Source of the DNA: Synergistaceae bacterium
Lineage (GTDB): Bacteria > Synergistota > Synergistia > Synergistales > Aminobacteriaceae
Direction: 5' to 3'
Assembly: GCA_017446055.1 (NCBI GenBank)
Contig: JAFSRQ010000079.1
Location: 13,881 to 77,880 of the forward strand
Length of the DNA: 64,000 nt
In this document: positions 49,660 to 59,859 of the stretch, in pieces
Layout of the letters: every line of letters starts with the position of its first letter
Numbering within the stretch: position 1 is the stretch's first letter
The notes under the pieces: generated by a model
What the model saw: only the letters and a program-made list of their open reading frames with translations
Databases searched by the model: none
Told to the model about the DNA's origin: nothing
Made by a program: the position numbers and the translations under genes

Positions 49660-49688
49660 TTGACAGCCGATAAACATTCAAGTACCAT
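49660..49688 (+). promoter_or_regulatory. candidate sigma70-type promoter for the giant surface-protein gene
   Basis: TTGACA (49660-49665), 17-nt spacer, TACCAT (49683-49688), located 45 nt upstream of ATG 49733. Confidence 0.4.
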
Positions 49689-49732
49689 GCAGATTATCCG
49701 CAAAAATTTATCGGAAGGAGAAGGATTTTGTC

Positions 49733-52700
49733 ATGCGCAAAATATTCGTGTGTGTGATGGCGGCCATGATGGTTTTCACGGCAGCTGTCACTCATGCCGC
49801 GGAAGTCCCTGCAAACCCCTTCAGCGGTTTCGGGCTTTACACCAGCTACGTAACAAGCGGAAGTGTGAAGCTCAACGCTGTAGGACTGCCGGATTATTCC
49901 GAGGTTAAGTCGTTCAGGGGCGACGGTGTAACACTGGGAGGAACTCTCAAGCCCGGTGCTGACACGTCATCATTGCCAGTGGGAACAGTAACGATACTCA
50001 GCGGGGACAACGCCGGGAAACGTTACAGGTTCACGCCCGGAGGAAGCTCGCGAGGCTCATCGTTCGTGGGCTACAATGCGGATTACTCGTACTATGACTC
50101 CTACGGCAACTATCACAGCGGTGAACTTCCAGCAGGCAGCAGGGTTATGTGGAATCTCTACACCTCGCCTGATGTTGTGGCGGGGGCGGCTGACATCAAG
50201 AGTGCTTCAGACATTGACCCGGTCAGTATAGGCAGGAATGATATTGTCCCGTTCGTCAAGTCAACTCAGACAAGCAGCTATACTTACCGCTATGATGTCT
50301 ACTTCGTGAAGTCGGGCGATTGGGGGGTGCCTGTAGCTGTCGATTATGACTCGGTGGCCGTCAACGGATATGTTGTGCCAGATTTCAGCAACCCCTATCC
50401 GGTCAGGCATACTATCGGCAGGAGTTATTACTACGACACTACTATTGCTGTAACATGCACCAAAGGCAGAGCCAGTTACACGTGGAACTTTGAGCTGACA
50501 TCAAGCCTTATCGAATGGGGGAAATTATCGCTTGACCTTCAGCCCTTCACACTTAAGGCTGGTGAGTCCCAGACCGTAACCGTAAAGCTGCCTTCCCGCT
50601 ATGACCTGAGAGAGGCTTACGCAAGCGCAGACATTACAGATCGGTATCTTGAAGTTGGCGATGCGTCAGTCCTTGAGGCCGGGAATATCACCTTCACACA
50701 GGGTGCAGGCTGGCACGGTGATAATGAGGAGAAATCTACGCTTGAGTTCGTGCTTACGGGGCTTGAGCCGGGACGTTCTGCTCTTGGGATATATATTCCT
50801 CGCATAGGGACATATTACCGTGAGATTCATGTTACGGATGAGAACGGAAGCATGAACATCGCCGGGGGGACAACGAGCCTTTACCCCATCATCACACATA
50901 CAACCCGCGCACGCTACGTTGAAGGCCGTCCATATTACCCGTCAGCAGAAGATTACGAGGCAAGGCTTACGGGGTTTGGCGGGTTCACGGGTGCTACTCT
51001 TGCGGTCAGCACATCGACTAGTTCAAGCGGGGATGTCAAAGAGTACTCATACTACACCGGGCCTCATGGCTATTTGGGGACTGTCAGAGATTCGCGCCGC
51101 ACTATCTCAGAGCTTACTGTTGACGGCGAGACGGGCAAATCCTACAACGTATCATCCTACTCAGGTGTACGCTACACTACCCTCAGCACAGACAGCTATT
51201 ACAACTCAGAATATCCCGGCGACATCTCATTTTCCCTTGATGCATCTGAAGACATAGAGATATGGCTGGAATTTCCCGCCAGCTACGATATGAACCTGTC
51301 ATCAGCAAAACTCTCATCACTGGTCTCACTCGACAAAATCAGGTCAACCTCCGTACAGCTTGAAGACTTTGCGCCATACTTCCAGCTTCATCATGCCTCC
51401 AATGACCTAGATGTGATAACTTCTGTTGACTGGTCATTCGTCAAGCCTGCCACTATGGAGAAAGTTACCCCTTCCGGCCTCACAGACATAACCATAGGCG
51501 GCCATACCGTAACAGGCACAAGCGGTACAGTTGCGGCTGACGGATATTTTTACCCCCGCATCAGCTACACCTACAACGGAACGGTCTACGAGTGGGAGTT
51601 CTCGCGAATGAACTCGACCAACTACACCACCTCCGCAGTTCTTGTAGGGACGGGTAAAACTGTGAGTGTTGACCTGCCTATAACGATAGACAGCGGGCAG
51701 ATATACATTTTCGACAGCGATATACTCAGTGCAGACCCGACAGCATTCACGTCCGCCGACTTCCAGTCCCGCACGGATGAAGCAGTAACAACTGTAATCC
51801 TTTCACAGCCAGTAATAAACACTAGTGCGCAAAAGTCAGCAGTAATTCATACGTTCAGCCAGGCACAGCAGACGGTAACAGGAGCATTAACCAGTGAGGC
51901 ATTGCAGGCGGTTGACGGCTACACTCCTGCACTTGCGGCGGTGTGGTCAGCAAAGGCATCACAGGTTGACGAGGCAATAACATCTGCATTAACCGGGATA
52001 GCATTCAATGCCGCGGCAAGGTCTCAATTCTTCCCTAGACTTGATACGGCAGGTGTCATATTCCCGCGCGACAACTCAACGCTGAAGTCCGGCACATCAT
52101 CGGTATCATCAGGAGCGTCAACAGCGGAGAAATTAGCGGCGGCGACCTCCCAGCTCAACGGAATGGGACAGGCATTATCGGCAACGGAAGCTGTAGTACC
52201 TGCTGAATATGGACTGTATGTTTTCCCGATGACATTCGGCAGTGAGCTTTACGGTGTCAGGATTGCGGGTGCAATAGGCAACAGGTCAGACAAGAGCAAT
52301 AATTTTGCTGACGGGACAAGTATAGCCTTCGTGAACAGTTCGGGGGATATTATTGACACAATCCCTGATGCATCACTCTCACAGGACATCATGCCCGGAT
52401 TTGTCGGTGTACTCACTGTGCTTGAGGCTGGGAAAACATATGAGCCTACGGTATACGCCGCCAACGACAGCCTTGCTGCAGCAGGAATTACCTTAACGGA
52501 GGCTGTTACGGCGGAAGTGAACCTGATAGAAACTCTTACGTCTGACAGCACGGTATCATTCCGTGTGAAGGGCATCAAGGACGGCCTGAGCAGCCTCAGC
52601 CTAATTCACCCGTACAGTGAGAGTTCAAGCCCCTACTACAGGTACAGCGCGTACAGGTGGAATGTTACTGTCGGTGAAGTCTCAGAGGACATCACCCCGG

Positions 52701-55700
52701 CGACTGCTACAGCGACATTCTCCATGAATGCGAACTATGCTCCGATGATTGAGGGCAGACCGTATTACGGAGGAAGCAGTGTATCATTCCCGGACTATGT
52801 ATCTATACGTCTTGATACTGGCCTTGAGCTTTCAGAAAGTGAATACGAGGCTAAACGCGATGACCTTACGGGGATAATGTATGTCTCCGGCGATAAAGAT
52901 ACGCAGGTAACACTGTATCCGTATGCCAATTACTCACGTTATGACAACGGCACATACTACAGGACGGTGTACTATGATGTCAGCTCCACCTACTTCACAT
53001 CAGGGAAAACGGTAAGGTGGGAATTTTCTTCCGGCCTCATAAAGAGTGGCAGCGCAACAATTCCCACGTTCGACAGCAGGAAAGCCGCTGACACTATACC
53101 CAGTCTCACACTTAACCGGGACGGCATCAACGCAGAGACCCTCGAATGGTCGTTCACAGACTCAAAGGATAACCCTGTAACAGCACCGTCAAATGTTAGA
53201 GTGTGGGTCAACAACTACCAGCGCGAGATTTCCAGCGACAAAGGCACGGGCAATATCAGCGTCAATCTCCCGGAAGCCTTCATCAACAACATTGATATCA
53301 GCTACGAGCAGGACGGCCTCACCTACACGTGGAACTTCAGACCCGTTGACAGCCCTTCATATAGCTGGAACGGAGACATTTTCACGTGGAACGCCGCGAG
53401 CAATGACCTTCCTCTGGCCATGAAGAAGGGTGAGACTCGTGAAGTCCTCCTCAGTGTCAGTGATGATTACGGCAACATCACTCCGTTAATCGGCAACCCC
53501 GGCATAGTCTCAATGTCAGTAGTCTCAAGCACAGACAGCACGGTTACAGTGAGGCTAACGGCAAAAGAGGCAGGAATGACTACTCTCGGCATGAGATACC
53601 AGCGCAAGGAGACATACACAGTATACCCGACAATCCCGGACAACTCTGGAAGTTACCCGGTCGCGGCAGTATACGGCGGTGATGTTGCTACAGTCTCAAG
53701 CGTCAGCCTCGATGACAGTGATGTGATTGACATCGTGCTTAACCCGGACGGTTCAGCAACAGCAGGAGGCGCGGAAGTTCCGACCTACAATTACGTGTGG
53801 CACGCAGACCCACAGCACCCGGCGGAATACTGGACTGACGGAATGACCGGGACGGAAGAGCTAGACTCAGACGCATACGAGGCGGCAATCACCAGCACCA
53901 ACAACGGACTGTACATAGCCCGCGATATACGCTACACGCCCAACACGCTGGACTTCACCACGTCCCAGACAGCACAGAAGGACGAAGATACAGAGTATGT
54001 TGTGTACTACGACTCATCGTCCCCGGCAGTAGCGGCGGCAATAGCGGCACTTGGTGAGACATACGGCACGGCCTACAGCACGGACAGGTACATATTCGCT
54101 ACCCTGCCCATGAGCAATGGAGGGATGCCCGGAGGCGACTTCCCCGGCGGCAATCCCCAGAGCGGAGATATACCTGACTTCCCCGGCGGAATGCCCAGCA
54201 GCGGAGACATACCCGACTTCCCCGGCGGAATGCCCGGCAGCGGAGACACACCTCCAGATTTCCCCGGCGGCAACATGCCCAGCGGCGATGTACCCGGCAC
54301 ACCCGGAGCTGGTGATACCCGGCTTCCTGTGATGACTACGGCGGCATCTGACAGTGAGAGTATTGCGGCCATGTCGACAATGACGCATTCGGCTGAAGAT
54401 GCCTACAACAACCCTGTGCTCCACATCACAGAGCCCGGCACTTACAGGATTTCGGGTACGTGGCATGGTCAGATATGGGTTGAGACTGGAGCGAAGGCAA
54501 AGCACAAAGTCAACATCATCCTTAACGGCGTTGATGTGTCATGTGATGTAGCTCCTGCTATCGTCTTCTACAAGGTCTACAAGTGGGCGGAAGATAACGG
54601 TTACGATGACCAGTCAACACTAACTGCCAATAACCTGTGGCGGAACATTGGCGGCGAAATGGTCAGTGCGGACGGAAGCTATAACGTTGGCGCGGTCGTT
54701 GAGATTGCTGACGGCACGACTAACACGTTCACGGGGTCTAACGTCTACAGGCTTCTTGAGCTTTGCCCGAAACTTGACGATGACGACAACCCCAAGTACA
54801 CAGGCTCAGGAATTGGTACTGACATCAGCGAGCAGGAGAAGATGTACAAGCTCGATGGTGCGTTCCACTCACGGAGGACTATGGTAATCGGCGGCAATGG
54901 CACGCTCAATATCACGTCAACGACATGCGAGGGCCTCGACAGTGAGATGCATATGCTTGTTGACGGCGGGAACATCTCCGTAACAGCCCCCGATGACGGA
55001 ATCAACGTGAATGAGGACTATGTATCAGTCTTCCAGATGGACAGCGGAACACTCACAGTCTCATCAACAAATGCTGACGGCATAGACTCTAACGGCTGGA
55101 TTGCCTTCAACGGAGGAACGCTCAACATTTCTGCGGGCAATCAGTCTCAGAACTCAGCTGGCGAGGCAGGGCTTGACGCGGAGAATGAGGTCTACATTTA
55201 CGACTCAAGCGCATACAACTGGACATCAGCAGGCGGCAGCTTCCCGTCAACACCAGACGTACCCACGCCTACAAGCCCGGACATTCCCACACCAACGCCA
55301 GAAAGCCCGGACGTACCATCGCCAACACCAACAAGCCCGGACGTACCATCGCCAACACCAACAAGCCCGGACATTCCCACGCCCATTAGCCCGGACGTTC
55401 CTGCAACGCCTGAAACCCGCGTAACATATTACGGGGACTATATAGCATGGCCGCGTGAAATCTGGGTGTCTGAGCTGGATTCGTCAACAGGAAAGTACAG
55501 AGTGCCTCACCTCACGGATGACATTGATGCGCTGATGGACACGCTGAAGCCCGGCGGCTCTGACTGGACGGAATACAGCACTGCTTCAGGCGACAAGTCA
55601 GCAACAGCAAGCGATGAGCCTGAATATGACCAGTCAGCAAAAGATGTAGGCTATCAGGGTCTCTCCGTATATCCTCGTTTCGCCATGCCTCAAGACCCGT

Positions 55701-56965
55701 CAGCAGACGCATACAAAGCAGTGTGGGAGTTCTCGGACGCTATGAATACTCCTTACGGCGTGAGCATGTTCAGCAGTGAGAATATGACGGTTACCGCCTC
55801 GCGTGATGCCGTTGAAGTGTGGCAGGCCATGAAGGATGAGCTACTGAGCAAGGATATTCCCCAGCTTGTCGCAATAGTCCTTCCTGAGATGGATATTGAG
55901 GATGATGGCTTCTACGTGTTCAGGCTTCCGGCGGACAACATAACGGGCAGCAATCAGGCTGTATTCTGGAGGGCGGAACGTTCCGGCGATGTCGACTACG
56001 AACGCTACGAGTACTACTACGGCCTGACTTCGGCGGATCTGGACACGATGATATTCCTTGACGACGGCGGGAATTTGACGGGGGCAGTTTCGGGTGATGA
56101 CTACATCAACGTTGCGGCATACTTCACGAGCGGCGTATACCGTCCTGTGATAACTGCTGCGGCGACCTCGCGCGACTTGGAGATACTCAGCGGCATTCCT
56201 TCACCCATAAGCCCAGATACCAGACCCATAAGCCCGGACATTATCCCGACAAGCCCGGACACCAGGCCAGTTAGCCCGGACATCAGACCCACCAGCCCGG
56301 ATACCAGGCCGACTAGCCCCGACATTAACCCGACTAGCCCGGATGTCAGACCGACAAGCCCGGACGTTACCCCGACTAGCCCGGACGTTGCGCCAGTCTC
56401 AGCAAGAACGACAAGGCCGAGCATCAACGTTCAGGAGACAGCCTCAGCACTGCGCACTATTCTGGGACGTTCGGACGCTGCTGTTACTGAGCTTCCGGCA
56501 ACATCAACAGGCACGGCACGCACGGTTTCAGACCTCTCAGCCAATCAGCTCACGGCAATATCAGCGCAGGGACGTGAAGCGGCGGCGGTGCTTCCTGAGA
56601 TTACGGTTGAGACGGCGGCGATATACGTATTCGGTGTGAGCCTCGACAACCTCGCTCCGGGGGCGGCAATATTCCTCGACATGACCACAACGCCGATCAA
56701 TGCGGGAAGCCTTGAAGCCTCAGAGAATTACACGGGGGATTACACGTTCCTTGACGACAGCGGCAATGAGGTCTACACGGTCCCGGCAAACCGTCATGTG
56801 AATGTTGCGGCATACCTTGAGCCTGATTATGTCTATTCACCCGTCATCACCACCAGCAGCAGCGGCACTCCGTCTGTAGTCGGCTCATCAAGCGGAGGAT
56901 GCAGTTCGGTGTACGGCGGTCTTCTTCTTGCGGGACTTGCCTTAGTCATTCGCAGGAAACGCTAG
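49733..56965 (+). CDS. 2410-aa secreted, repeat-rich surface protein with Cthe_2159-like beta-helix domain and Synerg-CTERM-like sorting tail
   Basis: Signal peptide MRKIFVCVMAAMMVFTAAVTHAA. The segment EPGTYRISGTWHGQIWVE..VNIILNGVDVSCDVAPAIVF...DGINVNED..ADGIDSNGWIAFNGGTLNISAG resembles the Cthe_2159 carbohydrate-binding family. The C-terminus is SSSGGCSSVYGGLLLAGLALVIRRKR. Confidence 0.85.
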   Translation: MRKIFVCVMAAMMVFTAAVTHAAEVPANPFSGFGLYTSYVTSGSVKLNAVGLPDYSEVKSFRGDGVTLGGTLKPGADTSSLPVGTVTILSGDNAGKRYRFTPGGSSRGSSFVGYNADYSYYDSYGNYHSGELPAGSRVMWNLYTSPDVVAGAADIKSASDIDPVSIGRNDIVPFVKSTQTSSYTYRYDVYFVKSGDWGVPVAVDYDSVAVNGYVVPDFSNPYPVRHTIGRSYYYDTTIAVTCTKGRASYTWNFELTSSLIEWGKLSLDLQPFTLKAGESQTVTVKLPSRYDLREAYASADITDRYLEVGDASVLEAGNITFTQGAGWHGDNEEKSTLEFVLTGLEPGRSALGIYIPRIGTYYREIHVTDENGSMNIAGGTTSLYPIITHTTRARYVEGRPYYPSAEDYEARLTGFGGFTGATLAVSTSTSSSGDVKEYSYYTGPHGYLGTVRDSRRTISELTVDGETGKSYNVSSYSGVRYTTLSTDSYYNSEYPGDISFSLDASEDIEIWLEFPASYDMNLSSAKLSSLVSLDKIRSTSVQLEDFAPYFQLHHASNDLDVITSVDWSFVKPATMEKVTPSGLTDITIGGHTVTGTSGTVAADGYFYPRISYTYNGTVYEWEFSRMNSTNYTTSAVLVGTGKTVSVDLPITIDSGQIYIFDSDILSADPTAFTSADFQSRTDEAVTTVILSQPVINTSAQKSAVIHTFSQAQQTVTGALTSEALQAVDGYTPALAAVWSAKASQVDEAITSALTGIAFNAAARSQFFPRLDTAGVIFPRDNSTLKSGTSSVSSGASTAEKLAAATSQLNGMGQALSATEAVVPAEYGLYVFPMTFGSELYGVRIAGAIGNRSDKSNNFADGTSIAFVNSSGDIIDTIPDASLSQDIMPGFVGVLTVLEAGKTYEPTVYAANDSLAAAGITLTEAVTAEVNLIETLTSDSTVSFRVKGIKDGLSSLSLIHPYSESSSPYYRYSAYRWNVTVGEVSEDITPATATATFSMNANYAPMIEGRPYYGGSSVSFPDYVSIRLDTGLELSESEYEAKRDDLTGIMYVSGDKDTQVTLYPYANYSRYDNGTYYRTVYYDVSSTYFTSGKTVRWEFSSGLIKSGSATIPTFDSRKAADTIPSLTLNRDGINAETLEWSFTDSKDNPVTAPSNVRVWVNNYQREISSDKGTGNISVNLPEAFINNIDISYEQDGLTYTWNFRPVDSPSYSWNGDIFTWNAASNDLPLAMKKGETREVLLSVSDDYGNITPLIGNPGIVSMSVVSSTDSTVTVRLTAKEAGMTTLGMRYQRKETYTVYPTIPDNSGSYPVAAVYGGDVATVSSVSLDDSDVIDIVLNPDGSATAGGAEVPTYNYVWHADPQHPAEYWTDGMTGTEELDSDAYEAAITSTNNGLYIARDIRYTPNTLDFTTSQTAQKDEDTEYVVYYDSSSPAVAAAIAALGETYGTAYSTDRYIFATLPMSNGGMPGGDFPGGNPQSGDIPDFPGGMPSSGDIPDFPGGMPGSGDTPPDFPGGNMPSGDVPGTPGAGDTRLPVMTTAASDSESIAAMSTMTHSAEDAYNNPVLHITEPGTYRISGTWHGQIWVETGAKAKHKVNIILNGVDVSCDVAPAIVFYKVYKWAEDNGYDDQSTLTANNLWRNIGGEMVSADGSYNVGAVVEIADGTTNTFTGSNVYRLLELCPKLDDDDNPKYTGSGIGTDISEQEKMYKLDGAFHSRRTMVIGGNGTLNITSTTCEGLDSEMHMLVDGGNISVTAPDDGINVNEDYVSVFQMDSGTLTVSSTNADGIDSNGWIAFNGGTLNISAGNQSQNSAGEAGLDAENEVYIYDSSAYNWTSAGGSFPSTPDVPTPTSPDIPTPTPESPDVPSPTPTSPDVPSPTPTSPDIPTPISPDVPATPETRVTYYGDYIAWPREIWVSELDSSTGKYRVPHLTDDIDALMDTLKPGGSDWTEYSTASGDKSATASDEPEYDQSAKDVGYQGLSVYPRFAMPQDPSADAYKAVWEFSDAMNTPYGVSMFSSENMTVTASRDAVEVWQAMKDELLSKDIPQLVAIVLPEMDIEDDGFYVFRLPADNITGSNQAVFWRAERSGDVDYERYEYYYGLTSADLDTMIFLDDGGNLTGAVSGDDYINVAAYFTSGVYRPVITAAATSRDLEILSGIPSPISPDTRPISPDIIPTSPDTRPVSPDIRPTSPDTRPTSPDINPTSPDVRPTSPDVTPTSPDVAPVSARTTRPSINVQETASALRTILGRSDAAVTELPATSTGTARTVSDLSANQLTAISAQGREAAAVLPEITVETAAIYVFGVSLDNLAPGAAIFLDMTTTPINAGSLEASENYTGDYTFLDDSGNEVYTVPANRHVNVAAYLEPDYVYSPVITTSSSGTPSVVGSSSGGCSSVYGGLLLAGLALVIRRKR
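54118..54320. repeat. in-frame Pro/Gly-rich repeats (DFPGG[MN]P.SGD[IV]P)
   Basis: About 4.5 units of ~42 nt, read directly. Confidence 0.8.
55251..55412. repeat. in-frame SPD[IV]P[TS]PTP repeats, including two perfect 30-nt copies
   Basis: agcccggacgtaccatcgccaacaccaaca occurs at 55304 and 55334. Confidence 0.85.
56203..56400. repeat. in-frame 21-nt repeat (~9.5 copies) encoding [TI]SPDxxP heptads
   Basis: ISPDTRPISPDIIPTSPDTRPVSPDIRPTSPDTRPTSPDINPTSPDVRPTSPDVTPTSPDVAP. Confidence 0.85.
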
Positions 56966-56978
56966 CAGTGATTCACAG

Positions 56979-57010
56979 GCTCCGTTCTATCACAGGACGG
57001 GGCTTTTTTT
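56979..57010 (+). terminator. intrinsic terminator after the giant gene
   Basis: Stem gctccgt/acggggc (one G-U pair), 11-nt loop, then TTTTTTT (57004-57010). Confidence 0.7.
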
Positions 57011-57058: not shown

Positions 57059-58163
57059 ATGAATCCCAGCATAAAGACAGAACAGGAAGAACTGCACGGC
57101 ATGTTAAGCGTCATGCAGGACAGCCTTTGACATAGGCACATTAGAAGCACGGTCTCAGGAACTCACACAGAAGTCATCAAGCCCGGATTTCTGGAGCAGT
57201 GAAGGCCATGAAGACACACTCAAAGAGTTATCGCAGGTCAACTCGCGGCTTGCCTCAGTCAGGCGCATTATCTCGGAGTACGAAGAGCTGTCCACGATAA
57301 GCGAGCTTCTGGCGGAGACGGACGACCAAGAGCTTGAGGCAGAATTTTTCCGGCTGGCCTCTGACATGCGGGGGGAAGTTGAGCGGGTCAACCTTCTTCT
57401 GCTGCTCAATGACCCGTACGACTCCTCAAACGCTATACTGATGATACATTCGGGGTCGGGCGGACTTGACTCACAGGACTGGGCCGGGATGCTACTGCGT
57501 ATGTACCTGCGTTACTGTGAGCGCGAAGGTTTTTCCGCAAAAGTCATAGAGGCTACAGCAGATGACGGTGAAGGGATAAAGAGTGCTACGGTTATGATTG
57601 AGGGTGATTACGCTTACGGTATGCTGAAGGCTGAACGCGGAGTGCACCGCCTTGTGAGGATTTCACCATTTGACTCTGCTCACAGGAGGCACACCAGTTT
57701 TGCCAGCGTGTTAGTATCACCTGAGTTCAGCGATGACGTTGACATTGACATACGCCCGGAGGACTTGAAGATTGACACCTTCAGGGCATCGGGCGCGGGA
57801 GGGCAGTACGTCAACAGGACAGACTCAGCCGTCAGGATAACCCACATACCGACAGGAATAGTTGTTACGTGCCAGAACGAACGCTCCCAGCACATGAACA
57901 GGGCTACCGCTCTTCACGTCCTCAAGAGCCGCTTGTACGACATGGCCGAACAGCAGCGGCAGGCTGAATTGTCGTCAGTAGTCGGCGAGAAGAAAGAGTC
58001 CACATGGGGAAGCCAGATACGAAGCTACGTCCTTCACCCTTACACCCTCGTGAAAGACCACCGCACGGGCTACGAGAAGGGCAATATTCAGTCAGTCCTT
58101 GACGGGGATATAGGCGGCTTCATCATGGAGTACCTGAGGCAGAAAGCGAGAGGCAATGCTTAA
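57059..58163 (+). CDS. prfB: peptide chain release factor 2, requires programmed +1 frameshift at 57128
   Basis: Frame 0 gives MNPSIKTEQEELHGMLSVMQDSL then TGA. The +1 frame continues DIGTLEARSQELT..PDFW.. into track ORF 57366..58163, which carries the SPF and GGQ motifs. Confidence 0.92.
57117..57131 (+). promoter_or_regulatory. RF2 autoregulatory +1 frameshift site
   Basis: AGGA cagc CTT TGA C: canonical CUU UGA C with an upstream SD-like AGGA. Confidence 0.85.
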
Positions 58164-59859
58164 GCGGATACTCCTGTTACTGATGATGATACTGCTGACT
58201 GTCCCGGCTTACGGCGCGTTTGTCCCGACAGACCCTGTAATCCCGGTGAACAGTCTCAAGCCCGGCATGAGCGGCTACATGCTTACGGTGATACGTGGCA
58301 CGGAGCCTTCACGGATTCCTGTGCGCATAGTCAGCGTAGTCCCCCAGAAACCGGGCAGGCAGTACAGCAACCTAGTACTCATTCGCCTGACGGGAGGCAC
58401 TAAGCTGGCACAGGGCATGAGCGGCTCGCCCGTCTACATCAGCGGAAGACTCGCGGGGGCAGTCCGAAGCGGCTGGAAGGATGCCGACCACACTATAGCC
58501 GTAATGATGCCGATAGAATACATGTGCAGTATCACCGAACACGAGTCCCCCTCACCAACCTTAGCGGCACTCAGCGCAGTAACAGTATCAGGTCTCAATC
58601 CTACAGGCCCGGCAATGTCGGAGTTGTCGCGCAAGCTCGGCGTAACGTTCACGCAGGGCATAAGCTCGTCATCAGGCGGGACTCTTGCGGGCGGCTCATC
58701 ACTCAGGCCGGGAGACTCACTTGCGGCTATGCTGGTGTGGGGGGATGTGGAGCTGTCAGCTTTTGGGACTGTTACGGCTGTTGACAGGCACGGGAGATTT
58801 CTTGCGTTCGGCCATGAGTTCATGAAGCGGGGAAATTCAGCGTATCCTTCTGCGGGCGCGTATGTTCATGAGACGGTCGACAGTGTGTCATTCCCCTTCA
58901 AGATTGCGTCAACACTCGGCATAAACGGCACTATCACACAGGACAGGGAGTCGGCGGTTGCTGGCAGGTTCGGCGTATATCCTCCGTCAATATCGGGCGA
59001 GTTTGTGTTCCGTGACAATGATGCTGGCACTGAGGACAGGTACAAGTTCCGAACTGTTACCGATGCCTTTATGACCGCTGACTTGTTCGAGGGTATCTGC
59101 AAGGGGCTGGCTGAAGATTCGTGGGGTCGAAAGGGTCAGGGGACTATGAGCGTAACACTTAGGCTTGACGGAAGGAACGTGCCTAACGGATGGACGCGCA
59201 AAGATATATTCTACTCGGACGAGAATATAATTGATGAGGCGTTCAAGCAGGTGAAACTTTTGCTGACGGCATACATGACTCAGCCCTTCAGCGACATATT
59301 GCCGGTTGGCTTCAGGATTACGGCGGAGGCTACACAGTCCCCCAAGGTGCTGCTGATTGATGACGTTACAGTGTCGGAGGACGCGAGTCCCGGCTCTGAT
59401 GTCGAGGTGTCAGTCAGGCTCAGGGGATGGAGGACGGACCCGGTAACACGCAAGTTCACCCTCAAGATTCCCGATGACGCTTCCGGGGTTGTTGAGCTTA
59501 TCGTGCGCGGAGGGGGTACTCAGTCATTCGGCCAGGCAGGTATTGACGGAGGGTGGCGGACTATAACCAGCCTTGAGAGAATGCTGTCGGAGTTCAAAGC
59601 GGCTGACAGTAACAACCAGCTTGTTATAGAGCTTAACGCCGACAGGACCGGGGAATTCCTGAACAGGATAACGAAATCCGGCAAGAAGGGTACAAGTCCC
59701 AAGAGCAGCAAGACACGTGAGCCTGACCTGCTGCCGGAAGAGGAAGAATACCTCAGCGAGACCAAAGAACGCCGCATCAAAGAAGGAACGCTGAAGATAT
59801 ACAGCTCCGACTACTACATTGACGGACTGATGAGAAGGGTAATCCACGTTGAGAAATAG
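58156..59859 (+). CDS. secreted SpoIVB-type peptidase S55 domain protein
   Basis: Signal peptide, and AQGMSGSPVYISGRLAGAV resembling the S55 catalytic-serine block. The C-terminal remainder is unassigned. Confidence 0.55.
   Translation: MLKRILLLLMMILLTVPAYGAFVPTDPVIPVNSLKPGMSGYMLTVIRGTEPSRIPVRIVSVVPQKPGRQYSNLVLIRLTGGTKLAQGMSGSPVYISGRLAGAVRSGWKDADHTIAVMMPIEYMCSITEHESPSPTLAALSAVTVSGLNPTGPAMSELSRKLGVTFTQGISSSSGGTLAGGSSLRPGDSLAAMLVWGDVELSAFGTVTAVDRHGRFLAFGHEFMKRGNSAYPSAGAYVHETVDSVSFPFKIASTLGINGTITQDRESAVAGRFGVYPPSISGEFVFRDNDAGTEDRYKFRTVTDAFMTADLFEGICKGLAEDSWGRKGQGTMSVTLRLDGRNVPNGWTRKDIFYSDENIIDEAFKQVKLLLTAYMTQPFSDILPVGFRITAEATQSPKVLLIDDVTVSEDASPGSDVEVSVRLRGWRTDPVTRKFTLKIPDDASGVVELIVRGGGTQSFGQAGIDGGWRTITSLERMLSEFKAADSNNQLVIELNADRTGEFLNRITKSGKKGTSPKSSKTREPDLLPEEEEYLSETKERRIKEGTLKIYSSDYYIDGLMRRVIHVEK

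Follow-up and report, generated by a model that had tools for sequence, protein, structure and literature searches.

A mosaic, fibrillar-adhesin-like protein with a Synerg-CTERM-like tail in a Synergistaceae bacterium from ruminant gut metagenomes

The DNA analysed here, called the window, is a stretch of 64,000 nucleotides (nt) from a Synergistaceae bacterium (assembly GCA_017446055.1, contig JAFSRQ010000079.1, positions 13,881 to 77,880 of the forward strand). At window positions 49733-56965 of the forward strand lies an open reading frame (ORF) of 2410 codons without an internal stop, complete with its stop codon. Six other assemblies carry the same DNA, apart from one 30-nt unit. An earlier note, made from the letters of the window, had described the product as a modular, Sec-exported surface protein with a beta-helix of the Cthe_2159 family, tandem linkers rich in proline (Pro) and a Synerg-CTERM-like anchor, and had raised the chance that the gene is broken. 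The gene is intact here and recurs intact in other assemblies, and the core of that description holds.

The protein starts with a Sec signal peptide, as had been noted before. It is predicted by inspection at amino acids (aa) 1-22 (49733-49798), and consists of an MRK n-region, a hydrophobic core and the site THA-A. This N-terminus is kept in orthologues, and their conserved MRK... starts back the choice of start codon.

Next come three super-modules, built of predicted beta-sandwich domains that resemble immunoglobulin (Ig) domains. Super-module 1 is aa 24-395 (49802-50917) and has no Pfam match. Super-module 2 is found in two parts. The first is aa 396-676 (50918-51760) and runs up to a strand that reads FTSAD. 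The second, aa 940-1000 (52550-52732), is the remainder of an interrupted Ig-like domain, as alignment with orthologues and with G095, the closest species representative, indicates. Super-module 3 covers aa 1001-1297 (52733-53623) and is collinear with orthologues.

Comparison of orthologue profiles with hhalign finds all three to be homologous. Super-modules 1 and 3 match at 99.1% (E 1e-18), 2 and 3 at 99.0% (E 3e-18), and 1 and 2 at 97.1% (E 6.5e-11). The Y[TE]W[NE]F landmark that the earlier note saw in each super-module is indeed present three times, at aa 249, 619 and 1198. Its other shared landmark, EGRPYY, is found at two places only, aa 397 and aa 1007. BLAST of the whole protein against itself returns the identity match only; the internal repeats emerge from piecewise BLAST and hhalign.

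The AlphaFold 2 (AF2) model of aa 24-680, made from an input alignment of 12 sequences, is all-beta, a chain of sandwich domains with a mean pLDDT of 81. Foldseek against the PDB matches this N-terminal region to generic multi-Ig chains with low TM-scores, such as the S-layer proteins EA1 and SbsC, the MG domains of alpha-2-macroglobulin, and titin; there is no enzyme fold among these matches. An S-layer role was considered and is not proposed, as the matches to 8OPR, SbsC and HPI are judged to be a consequence of tandem sandwich domains.

Pfam searches with eight separate segments of the protein give nothing above threshold besides PF14262, and in particular no Big, Fn3 or carbohydrate-binding module (CBM) family. 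The best sub-threshold Ig matches are Big_3_5 with 10.8 bits (cut-off 35.5) and an Fn3-like family with 13.6 bits (cut-off 25). The profile check for Big domains that had been proposed thus came back negative. The modelled Ig-like character is visible at fold level only, and some 85% of the protein is without annotation at sequence level.

The exception is the right-handed beta-helix at aa 1562-1836 (54416-55240), where the earlier assignment to the Cthe_2159 family proved correct. The PF14262 profile reaches 92.3 bits with the whole protein and 101.3 bits with the segment; its gathering threshold is 25.8. The match comes in two stretches, aa 1562-1615 and 1655-1836, which correspond to profile positions 4-56 and 60-205. 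The solved Cthe_2159 structures (PDB 4PEU/4PHB) are matched at E 4.6e-8, also in two stretches.

PF14262 is annotated as a carbohydrate-binding family. Its founding member is described as binding cellulose and polygalacturonic acid (cited in bioRxiv 10.1101/401869), and beta-solenoid domains related to Cthe_2159 have been linked with fibrillar adhesins (PMC9210967). By analogy, the beta-helix is likely to be the ligand-binding, glycan-binding unit of the protein. What it shares with Cthe_2159 of Clostridium thermocellum is the beta-helix domain, recognised well above the cut-off by a match over most of the profile. It differs in being an internal cassette: the copy in the window sits within an Ig-like scaffold of 2410 aa, has a head domain of its own and is flanked by Pro-rich linkers.

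Three tandem-repeat linkers were found by repeat detection. A 39-nt repeat in 3.7 copies (54137-54287) encodes the DFPGGMPxSGDxP linker with its four DFPGG units. A 30-nt repeat in 3.8 copies (55271-55383) encodes the SPDxPxPTPx linker, and includes a perfect stretch of 70 nt, or 2.33 copies of the unit (55303-55372). A 21-nt repeat (56189-56397) encodes nine heptads of the form [TIV]SPDxxP. The first two agree with what had been reported before, including the perfect 30-nt copies. The third had been given as about 9.5 heptads of the pattern [TI]SPDxxP; the array is present, with the count and pattern stated above.

Towards the C-terminus lie two copies of what will be called the stalk module. 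Copy C1 with an N-terminal extension is aa 1895-2148 (55415-56176), delineated by BLAST and iterative search, with an AF2 pLDDT of about 70-90. Copy C2 is aa 2215-2379 (56375-56869), a helical part plus a seven-strand beta-sandwich with a core pLDDT of about 90, and it is the last folded domain before the anchor. Piecewise BLAST aligns aa 1979-2145 with 2219-2377 at 29% identity (E 1e-10), and the NVAAY/PVIT landmarks stand at aa 2126/2138 and 2357/2370. The duplication that had been noticed is therefore real. The copy number was too low: iterative search reveals a third, divergent copy at aa ~770-911 (69 bits). In the AF2 model of aa 1890-2385 there are two ordered modules, each of a few helices followed by a seven-strand sandwich, with disordered linkers between. 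Foldseek of the stalk region against the PDB gives no match better than E 0.066, which amounts to generic sandwich and cupin noise. A loci search with the C2 core over genome contigs gave no match.

The stalk module is rare. At E<=1e-3 it is present in 244 of 1.84 billion representative proteins. A survey of 268 Synergistota species genomes finds it in 46 of the 47 genomes of the window's genus, in all 4 of one sister genus, and in one other genome, often in at least 13 copies per genome. In almost all of 143 representative stalk-bearing proteins, no further folded domain stands between the module and the C-terminal tail or the protein end. A strict Gly/Ser-Cys tail pattern is found in 103 of these, and inspection by eye adds at least 10; since the 143 were chosen by similarity to the tail-adjacent stalk copy, this association is somewhat biased. 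The tail-bearing ones have 29-90 residues after the module (median 38), and about 15 further representatives end directly after it.

In the window's own genome, 4-5 proteins have the stalk module before the tail, and five others have it at their extreme C-terminus. Elsewhere, a protein with a papain-like peptidase (P0014) bears the same stalk module and tail. The module thus sits next to the anchor in many different passenger proteins, and is not obligatory for the tail.

The five ORFs that end in the stalk module without a Cys tail are C63:1336-7806 (reverse strand), C113:3-515, C21:3-989, C90:1-459 and C75:3-518, given as contig and position. One of them is 2157 aa long, and the C-terminus reads ...Y.PVIAV[KR]... 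Some relatives in the representative library end in an acidic extension, PVIAVK...EE..AE. These ORFs look like a second, unanchored class of module-bearing proteins.

The 2410-aa protein itself ends in a tripartite tail of the Cys type, SSSGGC-SSVYGGLLLAGLALVI-RRKR (aa 2385-2410; 56885-56962). It has a Ser/Gly-rich motif that ends in a single Cys, followed without spacer by a transmembrane (TM) segment and an Arg/Lys cluster. This is the architecture that the earlier note had likened to Synerg-CTERM; the curated TIGR04564 model does not accept it. The alignment to that model spans profile positions 1-27, its full length, at the extreme C-terminus, with a score below the cut-off. An NCBIfam scan of the isolated 38-aa tail finds no match at E<=0.01.

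This tail is one of many. About 25 ORFs of the genome end in [GS]n-C, a hydrophobic segment and a basic cluster (e.g. C96:106592-106642, C31:2354-2422, C83:37164-37235). Only 2 of them pass the curated TIGR04564 cut-off, and about 9 contain Pro. A leave-one-out profile made from the 24 sister tails gives the tail of the window 34.2 bits (E 3e-9), where members score 28-45 and the best unrelated ORF end 10.5. Because so few of these tails pass the curated model or contain Pro, their sequences indicate that the genus uses a relaxed, Pro-optional variant of the Synerg-CTERM signal.

Machinery for such a signal is encoded in the same genome. The earlier note treated the sorting enzyme as unknown and suggested a genome search for co-occurring proteases. 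This search was productive: on contig C137, which is not the contig of the window, a profile search finds MrtS (NF040589) with 243 bits against a cut-off of 130. MrtS carries the motifs EExxxR, FxxxH and HxxxN, which are typical of CPBP proteases. The Synergist-type components GspC (226.9 bits, cut-off 200) and GspL (195.1 bits, cut-off 150) are both on contig C39. MrtS is single-copy, scores over its cut-off in 183 of the 268 Synergistota genomes, and is detected at E<=1e-10 in 45 of the 47 genomes of the window's genus.

MrtS is a CPBP intramembrane protease that has been predicted in silico to be the sorting enzyme for Synerg-CTERM (bioRxiv 10.1101/2023.06.07.544157). In the same work, a three-step model of retention by the tail, Cys modification together with MrtS cleavage, and display by a type II secretion system (T2SS) is built on in-silico evidence and experimental analogies. 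On this model, the tail of the protein in the window would keep it in the inner membrane after export, the invariant Cys would be modified, MrtS would remove the TM/Arg segment, and the Synergist-type T2SS would take the product to the cell surface.

The protein is also an evolutionary mosaic. The full-length family comprises about 12 clusters, all from Synergistaceae metagenome-assembled genomes (MAGs). It is found in 12 of the 47 species of the window's genus, where no ORF exceeds 1874 aa. Orthologues are collinear with aa 1-676, 940-1297 and 1895-2410, and lack everything between.

Two blocks of the protein in the window are thus missing from the orthologues. Insert 1 is aa 677-939 (51761-52549) and holds the divergent third stalk module. 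Insert 2, the Cthe_2159 cassette, is aa 1298-1894 (53624-55414) and consists of the head domain, the DFPGG linker, the beta-helix and the SPDVP linker; it is absent from orthologues P0003-P0010 and from G095. G095 is 58-73% identical, and its gene, split over two contig ends, is followed by prfB and is therefore syntenic. In G095, the FTSAD strand is joined straight to an (R/T)VSF strand, and super-module 3 straight to "TRVYYSG..PREIWV". From the first of these joins it follows that Insert 1 is nested inside an Ig-like domain, the last one of super-module 2.

Both inserts have paralogues elsewhere in the genome. Insert 1 shares 40% identity with a portion of a 654-aa Synerg-CTERM protein (C96:104708-106669). 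Insert 2 is, over aa 1337-1833, 71% identical to a 735-aa lipobox lipoprotein (C78:7273-9477), and 45-48% identical to P0012/P0013. The lipoprotein is the only other Cthe_2159 protein in the genome, and the closest relative of the beta-helix in the window. An ancestral protein of ~1500 aa, still found at the same locus in sister species, would then have gained two domains, inserted in frame and copied from the surface-protein repertoire of the same genome.

The lipoprotein gene lies on the forward strand of its contig, and its product has the lipobox AMSGC at the N-terminus and no C-terminal tail. One and the same Cthe_2159 cassette is in this way tethered by two different means within a single genome, a lipobox and a C-terminal tail.

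The earlier note had named the linkers as candidates for variation in length. For one of the three, variation is indeed present in the assemblies. The cluster at 90% identity holds two full-length sequences on 13 contigs: P0001 of 2410 aa on 7 contigs, and P0002 of 2400 aa on 6. The sole difference is one SPDVPSPTPT unit. Six contigs from other assemblies, some of them MEGAHIT k141 contigs and others scaffolds with the label XIEF21-1, were compared with the window as DNA. They have 0 substitutions over 7.2 kb plus flanks, and 3 of the 6 are without 30 nt that align at 55303-55332. The 39-nt and 21-nt arrays have no length variation among the compared assemblies. If the two alleles are real, a perfect 30-nt linker repeat would gain or lose a unit in an otherwise clonal population.

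One of the six contigs, L024 (ena:ERZ28018705:k141_323648), has 39 mismatches in the 453 nt after the stop codon in an ungapped comparison with the window, and the other five have none. The probable cause is an indel or an artefact of the contig end. In contig C14 of G095 (L029), the heptad linker has ten SPD[IV]RP[TI] units, several consecutive ones identical, and the gene of G095 is interrupted by two contig ends. Linkers made of repeats evolve quickly in this protein family, and hamper assembly.

Taken together, the 2410-aa product is best read as a Sec-exported, fibrillar-adhesin-like surface protein, a mosaic scaffold with an inserted beta-helix, displayed by a Synerg-CTERM-like route. 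The probability of this reading is put at roughly 70%. As far as sequence can tell, the features of a fibrillar adhesin are there: the signal peptide recognised by inspection, Ig-like arrays, a beta-solenoid domain of the Cthe_2159 type, and an anchor tail. From tip to membrane, the order would be the three Ig-like super-modules, the beta-helix, the two stalk modules and the Cys-containing tail. The beta-helix would sit between two flexible Pro-rich linkers, and the SPDxxP heptad linker would separate stalk modules C1 and C2.

Fibrillar adhesins are well described in Gram-positive bacteria, for example SRRP of Lactobacillus reuteri (PMC9210967). Those adhesins and the protein in the window share a long stalk in which Ig-like domains and linkers repeat, a binding region of the beta-solenoid type and a sorting signal at the C-terminus; both also evolve rapidly and vary in repeat number. 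There are also differences. The host of the window is diderm, and the Cys-type tail is predicted to be served by an intramembrane protease and a T2SS, not by a sortase acting on an LPXTG anchor. In addition, the presumed binding domain is central and not N-terminal, with three Ig-like super-modules distal to it.

The closest sorting system is Synerg-CTERM with MrtS (TIGR04564, NF040589). The tail is tripartite as it should be, the host belongs to the Synergistales, and MrtS, GspC and GspL are above their cut-offs. MYXO-CTERM with myxosortase and GlyGly-CTERM with rhombosortase are further relatives, in that these too combine a tripartite signal at the C-terminus with an intramembrane protease and with surface display that depends on a T2SS (bioRxiv 10.1101/2023.06.07.544157); signature motifs, protease subfamilies and lineages differ from those of Synerg-CTERM.

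Several observations weigh against this reading of the protein. Since Synergistaceae generally live by fermenting amino acids, plant fibre is not an obvious ligand. Identity between the beta-helix and the solved Cthe_2159 protein is low. The tail reaches 11.6 bits with hmmscan and 13.2 bits in a six-frame search, against the curated TIGR04564 cut-off of 22.5. Its TM segment (aa 2391-2406) has no Pro, while the published signal has an invariant Pro within a Leu-rich TM segment (bioRxiv 10.1101/2023.06.07.544157). By the curated definition, the tail is for these two reasons not a Synerg-CTERM member. Processing by MrtS and the T2SS is a bioinformatic prediction, carried over by analogy. Finally, the two linker alleles may stem from re-assemblies of the same samples, and so may be neither independent nor free of assembler effects.

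Four rival explanations were considered, each of them less likely than an adhesin on the cell surface. The tail might be a mere stop-transfer anchor, with the protein staying uncleaved in the inner membrane, facing the periplasm and never displayed. A tail under the TIGR04564 cut-off and without its proline would fit this, as would the in-silico character of Synerg-CTERM processing as a whole. The invariant Gly/Ser-Cys motif directly before the TM segment in about 25 proteins of one genome does not fit, and neither do a single-copy MrtS and a dedicated T2SS conserved across the genus. Moreover, a 2400-aa Ig-like array with ~190 residues of extended Pro-rich linkers would presumably be far longer than the periplasm would accommodate. 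Retention in the inner membrane is quite improbable on this evidence. A related question is whether the protein binds or cuts. The Cthe_2159 family falls within the pectate-lyase-like superfamily and resembles PL9 lyases (bioRxiv 10.1101/401869), and P0014, with its papain-like peptidase on the same stalk and tail, suggests that this scaffold can display enzymes. The central beta-helix could then be a polysaccharide lyase or hydrolase, and the protein a surface-tethered enzyme instead of an adhesin. Against that, for Cthe_2159 PMC9210967 and bioRxiv 10.1101/401869 mention binding alone, PF14262 is annotated as carbohydrate-binding, and the Pfam scan of the protein and its segments finds no CAZy-type catalytic family. 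A catalytic helix is unlikely, if not quite as improbable as retention.

The other two rivals concern the assemblies. The difference between 2400 and 2410 aa sits exactly in the perfect 70-nt tandem stretch, the classic place for an assembler to collapse or expand a repeat, and record names suggest that the same ruminant samples may have been re-assembled by different pipelines. The perfect self-overlap is only 40 nt, however, which makes k-mers of 41 and up unique. Contig names with k141_ mark MEGAHIT assemblies that ended at k = 141, and an assembler working at that k should not confuse the copies. Both alleles also occur among k141 contigs of neighbouring accessions (ERZ27256806 and ERZ27256812), and each recurs, on 6-7 contigs. 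An assembly artefact is a minority possibility, though one to be taken seriously; the odds that the variation is real are about three to one. Chimeric assembly is another matter. That reads of paralogous genes were joined is a natural suspicion in a MAG of 149 contigs and 85% completeness in which both inserts have paralogues. But the inserts are only 71% and 40% aa-identical to those paralogues and are therefore not the same DNA, all insert junctions are in frame, and the complete gene recurs, the same bar one 30-nt unit, in at least 6 other contigs from different assemblies and assemblers. The divergence of the inserts and the recurrence of the whole gene lead us to regard a chimera as extremely improbable.

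The surroundings of the gene are unremarkable. A promoter-like site, TTGACA-17-TACCAT, agrees with consensus at 10 of 12 positions and lies 45 nt upstream of the start codon (49660-49688); it is a consensus match only. A purine-rich ribosome-binding site, GGAAGGAGAAGGA, can be read directly from the sequence 7 nt before the ATG (49713-49725). After the gene comes a hairpin like that of an intrinsic terminator, with a 12-pair stem and then a T-run (56977-57005). Because these elements flank the ORF, the gene looks like a monocistronic, self-contained transcription unit.

The upstream neighbours, which are divergent, encode a Na/Pi symporter-PhoU fusion, PBP1C and RNase J; on the downstream side follow prfB, an ORF of 567 aa with unassigned function, tmk, holB and ricT. 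An operon with sorting machinery was considered and rejected in view of these neighbours. Recent horizontal transfer was rejected as well: GC content and GC3 (GC at third codon positions) of each part of the gene resemble those of the flanking housekeeping genes.

Two of the neighbours have features of their own. The prfB gene for release factor 2 (RF2), at 57059-58163 on the forward strand, reads across two frames. From the ATG at 57059 there are 22 codons and then CTT TGA C at 57125-57131, after which the +1 frame goes on as DIGTLEARSQ.... The arrangement is that of the canonical programmed +1 frameshift, and the gene is not broken. The 567-aa ORF (58156-59859, forward strand) overlaps the end of prfB, and also adjoins it in other assemblies. 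Its sole family signal is a weak local match to SpoIVB peptidase, with 24 bits.

As to the host, an uncultured bacterium, the named homologues of the 2410-aa protein come from MAGs labelled "Synergistaceae bacterium", and contigs carrying the gene are from ruminant gastrointestinal metagenomes. The RNase J encoded in the window has 84% identity to its counterpart in an uncultured Synergistales MAG from red deer.

The role of the stalk module invites a more speculative idea. The 165-aa module might be an undescribed, lineage-restricted domain that serves as an envelope-docking or export-competence unit, paired with the Cys-type tail, much as the C-terminal domain of type IX secretion system (T9SS) cargo or a wall-binding domain does. 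The family at this locus would then be a cassette-shuffling scaffold, and linker slippage would tune the reach of the binding domain, which would give a gut symbiont fast variation of its surface. The idea comes from the position of the module, directly before the tail in about 110 of the 143 representatives and at the C-terminus in the ~15 more, and from its rarity, its near restriction to two genera and its lack of a PDB fold match. Only 4-5 of the ~25 tail-bearing proteins of the genome carry the module, which speaks against a docking unit; the module is therefore not required for sorting. The proposal as a whole is rather doubtful.

This kind of system was already known. What is new is a variant class of tail, two unannotated domain families, documented domain insertions and a linker polymorphism. 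These extend known systems, and do not overturn current ideas.

For annotation, the consequence is that the curated Synerg-CTERM model misses most cargo in a genus of ruminant-gut Synergistaceae. With 2 of ~25 tails accepted, pipelines undercount the surface proteome there, and a Pro-optional model is needed. The two unannotated families, the N-terminal super-module and the stalk module, are possible targets for structural work and for new Pfam/NCBIfam models.

For the evolution of bacterial surface proteins, the locus provides a clean and datable case of domain shuffling: there is a syntenic orthologue without the inserts, the paralogues of the inserts are still in the genome, and one of the inserts, an entire domain, sits within an Ig-like domain. 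In addition, the 30-nt unit is the only polymorphism in a 7.2-kb gene that is otherwise free of single-nucleotide differences. If it is true, the linker would be the fastest-changing character of the locus.

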